Shown here: positions 58,639-60,253 of the stretch, in pieces
Numbering within the stretch: position 1 is the first letter of the stretch
Layout of the letters: each line of letters begins with the position of its first letter
IMG/VR virus record: IMGVR_UViG_3300022699_000302
Span: 64,001-128,000 of that record
DNA: 64,000 nt
From: a virus
Direction: 5' to 3' (one strand)
Program-made: the position numbers and the translations under genes
Notes under the pieces: model-generated
Told to the model about the DNA's origin: nothing
Databases searched by the model: none
Seen by the model: only the letters and a program-made list of their open reading frames with translations

Positions 58639-58653
58639 GTTTCCTCGTTTCGT

Positions 58654-58687
58654 AAAAAGAAAGCAGGGGTCCCGAAGGACCCCTGCT
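58654..58687 (-). terminator. terminator after the tRNA cluster
   Basis: AGCAGGGGTCC/GGACCCCTGCT hairpin plus U-tract. Confidence 0.8.
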
Positions 58688-58695
58688 AACAATGA

Positions 58696-58786
58696 TGGCA
58701 CAGCGGGGAGGACTCGAACCTCCAACCTTCCTACTAAGCGGACGGGCCCGCTTTTCAGATGCTCTACGCAATTGAGCTACCGCTGT
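58696..58786 (-). tRNA. tRNA-like RNA with anticodon loop replaced by a hairpin (no readable anticodon)
   Basis: acceptor ACAGCGG/CCGCUGU, GCCA end, D arm GCUC..GAGC, T arm GGAGGUUCGAGUCCUCC; 21-nt anticodon region AAGCGG-GCCCGU-CCGCUU. Confidence 0.75.
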
Positions 58787-58787
58787 G

Positions 58788-58863
58788 TGGTGCAGGGAGA
58801 AGGACTCGAACCTTCATTTCCGAGCTTAAGAGCTCGGGTCCTAACCAATTGGATGATCCCTGC
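58788..58863 (-). tRNA. tRNA, Lys(CUU)-like, with non-canonical anticodon loop
   Basis: GCAGGGA/UCCCUGC, ACCA end; arm CCGAGC-UCUUAA-GCUCGG gives a 6-nt (or 8-nt) loop. Confidence 0.75.
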
Positions 58864-58864
58864 T

Positions 58865-58942
58865 TGGCGGTCCCGGCGGGATTCGAACCCACACCCTCCT
58901 GAGTTTAGAGCCCAGGCGCGCTGCCAGTCGCGCTTCGGGACC
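58865..58942 (-). tRNA. amber suppressor tRNA (anticodon CUA)
   Basis: GGUCCCG/CGGGACC, GCCA end; 6-bp anticodon stem CCUGGG/CUCAGG, loop CU-CUA-AA; canonical D-loop GG and T-loop UUCGAAU. Confidence 0.85.
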
Positions 58943-58947
58943 GTGGT

Positions 58948-59337
58948 TTACGCAGCCTTCGCCGCCTCCTTTCGACTGAATTCCTTCAACGCCAGAGGAA
59001 GCGAAGACAAAAGTTTCGCGGTGTCTTCCCCAGGTTCGACAGCGACAGCCGTCAGCTCATTAGCCCAATCCGGCTCAAGCCACTTCGAGTGTCGGATACC
59101 CTGGGTCTGCAAGACATGACACAACAGATCCAGCGCCTGCTTGTGCTTCACAGAGAGCAAGCAGAGAAACTGGCTGTCGCGATGCCACGCAGTGGCTATG
59201 TCAGAGTTTTCGAAAGTGAATTGAGCGAGGGCGTGAGCAGACTGGGTTGCCTGCTGTCCAGGGCTGAGGTCCCTGCGAGTGACGATGTAGAGTTTATCAC
59301 CCGTTTGGTACTTCGGTTCTTCCTACGTGAAATCCAT
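58948..59337 (-). CDS. PTH2-like peptidyl-tRNA hydrolase with in-frame TAG at 59323..59325
   Basis: GGAGG-AAATG-ATG GAT TTC ACG TAG GAA...; then KLYIVTRRDLSPGQQATQSAHAL...EPDWANELTAVA...LPLAL. Confidence 0.75.
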
Positions 59338-59392
59338 CATTTCCTCCGTGGTTAGTTCGGGTATACCCGATGATGAAAAGGCCTGTCAACAC

Positions 59393-59400: not shown

Positions 59401-59488
59401 GAAAAACTCGAAAAAGGAGGAGGTAGGAGGGGACTCCGGGGTTACGGGAAGTCCCCTCCCCAGCTAGCCAGAAAGGGGGCGAAAGGGA

Positions 59489-60253
59489 TTAGCTGTTTTC
59501 CTCACTGCTCTTGGATGATTTGGCCGAGTCGGGGCCTGTATCCCCGGTCTCGCTCGGGGTGACCGCGTTTTCGAATTTCTCGAGAGCGTCTTTATCGACT
59601 TTCGTGCCGGCCTCGAGGTAGTCAGCTGCGTTCGAAGCAATGAGGTTGCTCTTCAGCAGTCGTTTCTGCGGTCCGCCGGCGTTGGCGTAATTCACGACCG
59701 ACTTACCGAACGCATCCATAGTGCCCTTGACGTTCTTCGATTGGAGGTGGGCTACGTTGCCTCTGCTGAGACCAAGTCCTTTTGATTCGTCCCAGGTCGA
59801 GATGTCAGAGCCCAGGAATGCGATCGACCAGTTCTCGTCGCTCTCACGGTCCTCGATCATCTTTTTGATGACAGCGGGATCCTTGATCTCTTGGGAACTG
59901 TTTTCTTGCCCATCAGTCATGACAGCGATGATGGATGTGGCCTCACCGAGCTTGTACTTCTTCGCCGCTTCTTCGGTGGTGGTGATGGCCCGGTGGACTG
60001 CGTCGAGCAGAGCCGTCGATCCTCGCGTGGTGTAGTTCTCCATGTTGAGGTCGGCTGCACTACGGATCGGCTGATCTTTGACCAGCTCGATGTACTCGTT
60101 ATCGAAAAGGATGATCGTGAGACGAACATCTTTGTCCTGAGCCTCTTTTTCGAGGCTGGACTTGAAAGCGTTGACCGACTCGATCACGTCCATACGTTGG
60201 GGCTCCATAGAGCCGGAGCGGTCGACCACAAGTGTGACGTATAATCTTTCCAT
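59489..60253 (-). CDS. von Willebrand factor A domain protein
   Basis: MIDAS VVDRSGSM, GSTALLDA, MTDGQENSS. Confidence 0.85.
   Translation of the reverse strand: MERLYVTLVVDRSGSMEPQRMDVIESVNAFKSSLEKEAQDKDVRLTIILFDNEYIELVKDQPIRSAADLNMENYTTRGSTALLDAVHRAITTTEEAAKKYKLGEATSIIAVMTDGQENSSQEIKDPAVIKKMIEDRESDENWSIAFLGSDISTWDESKGLGLSRGNVAHLQSKNVKGTMDAFGKSVVNYANAGGPQKRLLKSNLIASNAADYLEAGTKVDKDALEKFENAVTPSETGDTGPDSAKSSKSSEENS

Follow-up and report, generated by a model that had tools for sequence, protein, structure and literature searches.

A phage gene for a PTH2-family protein, presumed to be a peptidyl-tRNA hydrolase, is interrupted within its first few codons by an in-frame amber codon (TAG) and is followed directly by a tRNA gene with the anticodon CUA, here called tRNA(CUA). 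The pair lies in IMG/VR virus record IMGVR_UViG_3300022699_000302, a complete 194,114-bp record with direct terminal repeats; the window that we analysed is the 64,000-nucleotide stretch from base 64001 to base 128000 of that record, and all coordinates below follow the numbering of this window unless stated otherwise. We consider it likely, from the sequence and its relatives, that synthesis of the hydrolase is gated by the phage's own suppressor tRNA, and we infer both that the UAG is read through and that this tRNA(CUA) is what reads it. A sequence-only reading of the same DNA, made before any database search, had proposed that the hydrolase depends on read-through by the co-transcribed suppressor and had attached a function to that dependence. 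The dependence has gained strong comparative support—from the conserved TAG, the placement of the Shine-Dalgarno (SD) sequence, the purine 3' of the TAG, the linked tRNA, and the standard genetic code of the phages concerned—but the functional gloss is partly illogical, as discussed with the mechanism.

The Interrupted Gene and Its Predicted Suppressor tRNA

The operon lies wholly on the minus strand and runs from a promoter-like box through the SD sequence, a leader, the TAG, and the PTH2 frame to three tRNA-like genes and a terminator (Table 1). The ribosome binding site, the run ATG ATG GAT TTC ACG TAG, and the complete PTH2 domain singled out by the sequence-only reading are all present, and the tRNA with anticodon CUA that it placed five nucleotides past the stop is called by both ARAGORN and Infernal. 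The same reading had remarked that the list of open reading frames (ORFs) holds only the last 70 amino acids of the protein, with no ATG between the TAG and the conserved core. This is correct, and it extends to other start codons: neither ATG, GTG, nor TTG occurs in frame between the TAG and the core of the domain. The first canonical start after the TAG is a TTG at 59160, which yields only the 70-aa C-terminal ORF of the code-11 list. Translation likely starts at the second of the two leader ATGs (59337-59335), with M-D-F-T ahead of the stop, because the ATG AAR TTC ACG of relatives aligns with this second ATG. No mRNA structure was found around the UAG (folding z = +0.6).

The tRNA(CUA) has a 6-bp anticodon stem, a 7-nt loop CUCUAAA with U33 and a purine at position 37, and a canonical T-loop, GGUUCGAAUCC; the 6-bp anticodon stem is unusual, as is the combination A8/G14. 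In structural terms it qualifies as an amber suppressor, and it is the predicted decoder of the UAG.

Conservation of the Early Amber Codon

Four close relatives of the hydrolase, with 73-79% protein identity, come from metagenome contigs, one of them 195.5 kb long; searches of viral contigs and of a phage collection with the hydrolase or its neighbour, a VWA-domain protein, returned no close relatives. In all four, the elements TTGAC(A/G)-N17/18-GGGTATACCC, ACGGAGG, and ATG AAR TTC ACG TAG G are invariant, and the rest of the intergenic DNA and the codons after the TAG vary around them. Two further relatives, at about 45% identity, read ATG ACN CAC ACC TAG GGC and have a tRNA(CUA) downstream.

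A more distant set was drawn from the best 80 of 297 IMG/VR contigs that encode a relative. The loci begin with ATG, one to seven sense codons, and TAG, with no canonical start before the conserved core, in 77 of the 80; these 77 gated loci represent 65 distinct ones. Their leader peptides are not conserved (MK, MT, MS, MSL, MCL, MKDT, and others), and TAG is found within the body of the gene only three times in 7,746 codons. As a control we took the 854 other frames of at least 100 codons in the same loci, which are bounded by TAA in 53% and by TAG in 21%; a comparable pattern is seen in 20 of them, 11 of which use TAG. On these sequence comparisons, we regard a chance origin of the early-TAG pattern as excluded.

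The surroundings of the TAG are also constrained. Fifteen distant loci have a GGAG-type SD sequence, which sits 4-7 nt before the leader ATG for leaders of one to seven codons and is therefore up to about 30 nt away from the post-TAG codon. Of the 65 loci, 49 have an A next to the TAG, 14 a G, 2 a C, and none a T (p = 1e-12 relative to first codon positions in the gene body); Bossi, and Miller and Albertini, reportedly found in 1983 that a 3' purine, and especially A, favours amber suppression. Alignment of homologues, the check that the sequence-only reading had proposed, finds the early TAG conserved in the four close relatives as well as in about 65 distinct distant phages, with a linked tRNA(CUA) in 56 of these 65 distant loci. 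Among prokaryotes, a search of 185,579 species genomes gave a single match—a gated copy with a tRNA(CUA), on a contig of a metagenome-assembled genome.

Cultured Carriers and Their Annotation

The public phage collection contains 237 records that encode a relative, 206 of them from Mycobacterium phages. Catera and Bxz1 share the arrangement TTGACA-18-TAC(C/T)GT-gaaggc-ATG TAG GTG, with a tRNA(CUA) 250-300 nt downstream, and ScoobyDoobyDoo, which belongs to a different genus, has GTG TAG GTG after a similar box and a 'tRNA-Pyl(cta)' 180 nt downstream; the spacing suggests that these mycobacteriophages make a leaderless transcript beginning at the first start codon. In Serratia phage BF and eight relatives the sequence is GAGGA-N6/7-ATG NNN CAY/CAA TAG AAT/ATT, with variable leader codons and a fixed TAG. 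Most of this group have a tRNA(CUA) about 3 kb downstream, labelled tRNA-Sup in the BF record. Xanthomonas phage Xoo-sp13 has AGGAG-N8-ATG AAG AAG TAG AAC before an HD-domain-PTH2 fusion; unlike Bxz1, Catera, ScoobyDoobyDoo, and BF, all of which have a nearby tRNA(CUA), it has none nearby. The module is overlooked in the public annotations of cultured carriers, among them L085 (KY630187.1), L082 (NC_008207.1), L083 (AY129337.1), and L084 (MN047793.1).

An early TAG is likely to make gene-calling programs overlook or shorten such genes, and the module exposes systematic annotation errors. The GenBank annotation of Serratia phage BF omits the Pth2-like gene, the mycobacteriophage Pth genes are annotated from the GTG right after the TAG, and the Xoo-sp13 fusion is annotated from a later ATG; the tRNA(CUA) itself is labelled tRNA-Arg in Catera, 'tRNA-like product' in Bxz1, and tRNA-Pyl in ScoobyDoobyDoo.

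Linkage to tRNA(CUA)

A same-strand tRNA(CUA) lies in the fetched flanks of 56 of the 65 distinct loci, downstream of the hydrolase gene in 47 and upstream in 9. The median distance is 705 nt, with 12 loci in which the two genes are within 100 nt of each other; among the nine loci without a tRNA(CUA), five are truncated. CUA is the anticodon of 65 of the 203 tRNAs in these loci. The tRNA(CUA) genes of related loci are diverse in sequence, but their cloverleaf is preserved, and 11 of 19 pairs show compensatory changes.

In the phage studied here, the three genes of the operon are the only tRNAs that Infernal finds in the 194-kb genome, which has no ordinary tRNA; one marginal extra tRNA-like match falls inside a Y RNA locus at genome positions 80581-80636. 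No tmRNA was found in the whole 194-kb genome.

Genetic Code of the Phage

Recoded phages that carry suppressor tRNAs and read TAG as Gln under 'code 15' have been described among crAss-like, Lak, and other phages (Borges et al. preprint 10.1101/2021.08.26.457843; PMC10879173), and their suppressor tRNAs are known (10.1101/2021.08.26.457843, PMC10879173, PMC13037316). The phage studied here shares with them a phage-encoded tRNA(CUA), but neither the rise in coding density nor the rarity of TAG as a terminator that mark such genomes.

The sequence-only reading had taken TAG to be an ordinary stop elsewhere in the DNA, and this was upheld for the genome: among the 212 code-11 ORFs of 100 aa or more, TAG ends 63, TAA 100, and TGA 49, and such ORFs cover 89-92% of the sequence. 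Frames joined across a TAG are no commoner than frames joined across a TAA (70 vs 60), and back-up stops are not enriched after TAG-terminated genes; in a comparison of TAG, TAA, and TGA, neither stop usage, ORF coverage, nor stop-joined frames gave a signal of genome-wide recoding. An ORF-poor stretch at 15.7-18.0 kb of the window is an RNA locus, not a set of recoded genes.

We also searched the genome for other genes with a ribosome binding site, a start, an early TAG, and a long start-less frame, and found none that was convincing. The two early-amber candidates in uncovered DNA were rejected for lying in an RNA locus or lacking an SD sequence.

The PTH2-Family Protein

The Pfam family PF01981 (PTH2) matches residues 10-100 of the post-TAG frame over profile positions 2-102 of 115 (E = 1.3e-7; 32.2 bits against a gathering cut-off of 23), and a profile of the phage family matches the PDB Pth2 structure 2zv3 (E = 2e-10). 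The AlphaFold2 model of the post-TAG frame has a predicted local distance difference test score (pLDDT) of 94.8; when it is compared with known structures by Foldseek, ranks 1-13 are all Pth2 or Bit1, with a probability of 1.0 and template modelling (TM) scores of 0.5-0.77.

With Pth2 proteins (PF01981; PDB 2zv3, 3erj, 1q7s, 1xty) the phage protein has in common the fold and the Q..HA and acid/Thr motifs, and Q27, H30, and T91 are invariant in the phage Pth2-like family. The phage subfamily differs from canonical Pth2 in two respects: its acid residue is Glu83, aligned with the Asp of the canonical RDAG motif, and a shorter loop, P-G-x-Q, stands in place of GKGK and lacks a Lys, the catalytic residue that characterised Pth2 has there. 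PTH2 genes in jumbo phages have been noted before as encoding a ribosome-rescue factor (Iyer et al. 2021, PMC7824862); that note is silent on an amber codon or a partner tRNA.

Proposed Mechanism

In the reading that we favour, the locus would work as a self-contained transcription unit made up of a promoter, SD sequence, ATG, three sense codons, UAG, hydrolase, tRNA(CUA), two aberrant tRNA-like RNAs, and a terminator. Ribosomes would begin at the SD-proximal ATG and reach the UAG at codon 5, where release factor 1 would release a tetrapeptide unless the codon were decoded by tRNA(CUA); the suppressor itself would be processed out of the transcript that carries the hydrolase frame and would be aminoacylated by a synthetase of the host. 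The hydrolase would thus be made only when tRNA(CUA) decodes the UAG. Because that decoding is required, synthesis of the hydrolase would be tied to suppressor activity in both timing and amount, and because the tRNA and the mRNA share one transcript in this phage, the hydrolase could not appear until excision and charging of the tRNA were complete.

Termination on very short nascent peptides is slow, as is familiar from the literature on minigenes and peptidyl-tRNA drop-off. For this reason the early UAG may be a privileged site for a weak suppressor, at which decoding could occur with normal gene ends left largely untouched; such a site would reconcile the presence of a suppressor with a phage in which TAG ends 30% of the ORFs.

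The arrangement may serve to let the capacity for recycling or rescue keep pace with suppression; alternatively, the target of the enzyme may be the suppressor. A role in translation maintenance fits the neighbouring genes for transfer-messenger RNA (tmRNA) and initiation factor 3 (IF3), as well as the earlier description of PTH2 in phages as a rescue factor (PMC7824862). The sequence-only reading had gone further and proposed a sensor of the tRNA pool that makes a rescue enzyme on demand. This is not supported as stated: on-demand sensing does not follow, because the gate opens when the suppressor works and not when tRNAs fail.

A broader idea, which we put forward tentatively and regard as doubtful, is that the Pth2-like enzyme, together with the suppressor tRNA, makes up a portable feedback circuit like that of release factor 2 and its in-frame UGA. 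The early UAG would report the strength of suppression and the enzyme would act on the suppressor or its by-products, letting a standard-code phage carry a suppressor safely; such a circuit could also be a starter kit for full TAG recoding. Speculatively, the enzyme might hydrolyse peptidyl-tRNA(CUA) or N-blocked aminoacyl-tRNA(CUA), or might clear stalls that arise from drop-off or read-through.

Weighing the Evidence

Several observations count against gating by the suppressor, or limit the form that it could take. If suppression were strong, 30% of the phage's own proteins would acquire extensions, and read-through must therefore be weak, dependent on context, or timed. The counts from the distant loci are not phylogenetically independent. 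The Glu in place of Asp and the shortened GKGK loop mean that the substrate may differ from that of canonical Pth2. Ungated homologues (L009, L057, L073, and L103) still adjoin suppressor tRNAs, so the gate is not obligatory; since these tRNAs include UUA types, the enzyme seems to be a working partner of suppressor tRNAs generally, with the gate as an added layer. Lastly, ATT follows the TAG in 37 of the 65 loci and GTG follows it in the mycobacteriophages, and both are also predicted by re-initiation at a near-cognate codon.

The last point leads to an alternative that we consider unlikely: the leader and TAG would form a mini-ORF, followed by re-initiation at the codon after the UAG or by direct use of a non-canonical start there, with no suppression at all. 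The preference for ATT goes beyond Ile usage, the ratio of ATT to other Ile codons being 37:3 here against 369:268 within the body of the gene (p = 3e-6); it reflects selection at the nucleotide level, which could be for an optimal suppression context or for a fall-back near-cognate start. Further points on the side of re-initiation are that Bxz1, Catera, and ScoobyDoobyDoo have GTG next to the TAG, with a purine-rich stretch 6-7 nt upstream of that GTG, and that phage IF3 genes occur in seven neighbouring loci. However, the post-TAG codon is GAA in the phage studied here, GGC or GGG in its close relatives, and AAT in the BF group, and in 24 of the 65 loci it is one unable to initiate (GTA, GTT, ACA, AAA, AAC, and others). 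Re-initiation also leaves unexplained why TAG should be the stop chosen in AT-rich genomes dominated by TAA, and why tRNA(CUA) should travel with the gene.

Read-through might instead serve only to attenuate a potentially harmful esterase, the linkage to the tRNA being incidental in that both genes sit in tRNA clusters. Suppression is usually partial, and the gene is commonly found among tRNA genes, as this explanation would have it; yet a weak SD sequence or start codon would attenuate equally well, the enrichment of CUA among the neighbouring tRNAs argues for a dedicated pair, and the only tRNA genes of this phage are those in the operon. On balance, we hold mere attenuation to be improbable.

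Another explanation dispenses with the gate: the phage would be a code-15 phage in which TAG is an ordinary sense codon, read as Gln. Three loci (L003, L032, and L038) do have a second, internal TAG at E/Q/K-type alignment columns, and the phages concerned are probably recoded; many database homologues, moreover, have Q at the position of the TAG, which may simply reflect gene calls made under code 15. For the phage studied here this is very improbable, as its genome is not recoded—coverage by ORFs under code 11 is 92%, TAG ends 30% of the ORFs, and TAG-joined frames are not in excess. Catera is alike: over the first 50 kb of its genome, TAG terminates 16 of the 51 long ORFs. In the 80 related loci a local test of recoding by ORF coverage is uninformative in the AT-rich tRNA regions. 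The N-terminal position of the TAG in 77 of the 80, set against the three in 7,746 codons within the gene, speaks for positional selection and not for codon usage.

That the gene is dead or misassembled, and the hydrolase not made, is suggested by nothing beyond a single in-frame stop near its start and is scarcely credible, since the TAG is identical in four independent metagenomic relatives with substitutions around it and recurs in dozens of lineages—which also contradicts two of the doubts raised with the sequence-only reading, a sequencing error or a sense codon in relatives—and since the gene is undamaged past the TAG, where it retains the residues invariant in the family and is modelled with a confident fold.

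The Transcription Unit

The features of the operon are collected in Table 1. A strict sigma-70 scan rejects the promoter-like box on account of the C at position 6 of its -10 element; the conserved footprint in the four close relatives nevertheless indicates that it is probably a real promoter, despite the failure of TATACC in the consensus scan. Upstream, a GC-rich inverted repeat followed by a T-rich run (59425-59470, minus strand) lies between the VWA-domain gene (59489-60253, minus strand) and the box. It looks like a terminator of the VWA gene, and because that gene seems to have its own terminator here, the Pth2-tRNA unit appears to be transcriptionally separate.

Table 1. Features of the amber-interrupted hydrolase operon, in window coordinates.
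Feature	Position	Strand	Basis
Promoter-like box: TTGACA (59389-59384), 18-nt spacer, TATACC (59365-59360)	59360-59389	-	Read from sequence and alignment of relatives
Shine-Dalgarno sequence GGAGG; second ATG 5 nt downstream	59343-59347	-	Sequence; ACGGAGG invariant in relatives
Leader ATG ATG GAT TTC ACG; ATGs at 59340-59338 and 59337-59335	59326-59340	-	Sequence
In-frame amber TAG, next base G; codon 5 counted from second ATG	59323-59325	-	Sequence, relatives
PTH2-family hydrolase body (predicted), 124 codons and TAA (58950-58948)	58948-59322	-	Pfam, family profile, AlphaFold2, Foldseek
Spacer ACCAC (5 nt) between TAA and tRNA(CUA)	58943-58947	-	Sequence
Predicted amber-suppressor tRNA, anticodon CUA at 58908-58906, CCA encoded	58865-58942	-	ARAGORN; Infernal 48.7 bits; fold
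Second tRNA gene, 8-nt anticodon loop CUCUUAAG, CCA encoded	58788-58863	-	ARAGORN; Infernal 45.7 bits; fold
Third tRNA-like gene, anticodon arm replaced, CCA encoded	58696-58786	-	Infernal 46.2 bits; ARAGORN relaxed; fold
Intrinsic terminator, end of the unit: 11-bp GC-rich stem, 4-nt loop, T-tract	58652-58687	-	Sequence and fold, z = -5.7

Relation to Known Systems

Code-15 phages resemble the present system in having a phage tRNA(CUA) and in-frame TAGs that block translation until suppression, and in the notion that recoding serves to time expression. They differ in that the phage studied here keeps the standard code, with TAG as the stop of 30% of its genes, and in that only a single non-structural, translation-related gene is concerned, with its TAG within the first few codons and the tRNA adjoining it. 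The code-15 papers (10.1101/2021.08.26.457843; PMC10879173) make no mention of a hydrolase.

Special tRNAs paired with stop-bearing client genes are also a feature of pylT, with the UAG of methylamine methyltransferase genes, and of selC, with UGA; in contrast to those pairs, nothing in the present one points to a special amino acid, to a synthetase of its own, or to a recoding element in the mRNA. The release factor 2 gene, prfB, has an early in-frame UGA that is passed by a +1 frameshift, and the stop in question is one on which its own product acts. The likeness lies in an early in-frame stop in a translation-factor gene, with synthesis hanging on termination versus alternative decoding. 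Here, however, the escape would be by a suppressor tRNA and not by a +1 frameshift, and action of the product on its own stop is a feature of prfB. The bar minigenes of phage lambda are free-standing, consist of ATG, one to three codons, and a stop, generate peptidyl-tRNA when translated, and are toxic in pth-defective hosts. Together with host Pth they offer another case of a very short ORF functionally tied to peptidyl-tRNA hydrolase, which we treat as a lead only; in the present case, by contrast, the mini-ORF shares the reading frame of the hydrolase gene and has UAG as its stop.

In the literature we found no published description of an amber-gated hydrolase gene paired with a suppressor tRNA. 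If the proposed gating is right, stop-codon recoding as a regulator would here be reduced to one gene and one tRNA in standard-code phages. The module would give the puzzling suppressor tRNAs of such phages a concrete client gene, and it would amount to a natural and widespread translational lock of two parts, the amber codon and the tRNA that goes with it, like those that synthetic biologists have built by hand. It may also be an evolutionary stepping stone to stop-codon reassignment.

The Second and Third tRNA-Like Genes

ARAGORN calls the second tRNA of the operon 'Lys|Stop (ctta)'. Its anticodon arm is a perfect 18-nt palindrome with an alternative fold of a 7-bp stem and a 4-nt loop, and an exact search for this odd arm gave no match. 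It could be an ochre-type reader, a reader of the quadruplet UAAG, a variant of Lys(CUU), or a decoy. At locus L101, two tRNAs with 8-nt loops containing UUCA adjoin an ungated Pth2-like gene.

The third gene has normal acceptor, D, and T arms, with an interrupted hairpin of about 31 nt in place of the anticodon arm; Infernal detects it, and ARAGORN misses it unless its intron settings are relaxed. Counterparts lie directly 3' of the PTH2 stop in relatives (L108, 3370-3460; L109, 3380-3479; L111, 2017-2116), and across the four long-arm genes about 27-45 nt replace the anticodon arm. The third gene may be the carrier of a small intron or a non-decoding tRNA mimic.

Variants and Neighbours of the Module

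A subgroup of Pth2-like genes (L009, L099, and L103) is linked to a tRNA(UUA) of ochre type instead of a tRNA(CUA). L099 keeps ATG AAT GAG TAG, with an ATG two codons later, and L009 and L103 are ungated; in our sample no clean co-variation of stop type with anticodon was seen, the UUA-linked genes being either ungated or TAG-gated. A different variant is found at L097 (3964-4010), in a 165-kb relative of Serratia phage BF with no tRNA(CUA) within 4 kb: AGGAG-ATG is followed by ten codons and CAG TAG G, and from there Pth2 resumes in the +1 frame. Either the assembly contains an indel here, or the stop is the site of a prfB-like +1 shift.

No universal third protein partner was found in the neighbourhoods, where IF3, tmRNA, an MVP/SPFH protein, and homing endonucleases occur only sporadically. 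Phage IF3 genes in seven loci, and tmRNA in 2 of the 18 loci scanned for it, lie within a few kb of the gated gene (examples of these entries are L033, 7152-7688; L041, 1188-1535; and L005, 1039-1392), which suggests a larger translation-maintenance neighbourhood. In four loci, homing-endonuclease-like genes (HNH/NUMOD3) just upstream of the Pth2-like gene themselves start with ATG, a few codons, and TAG (L006, 1718-2449; L013, 3255-3992; L019, 1939-2688; L081, 3190-3975), one of them with DUF723 and PvuRts1I-like domains; some phages may thus gate a second class of gene with the same suppressor.

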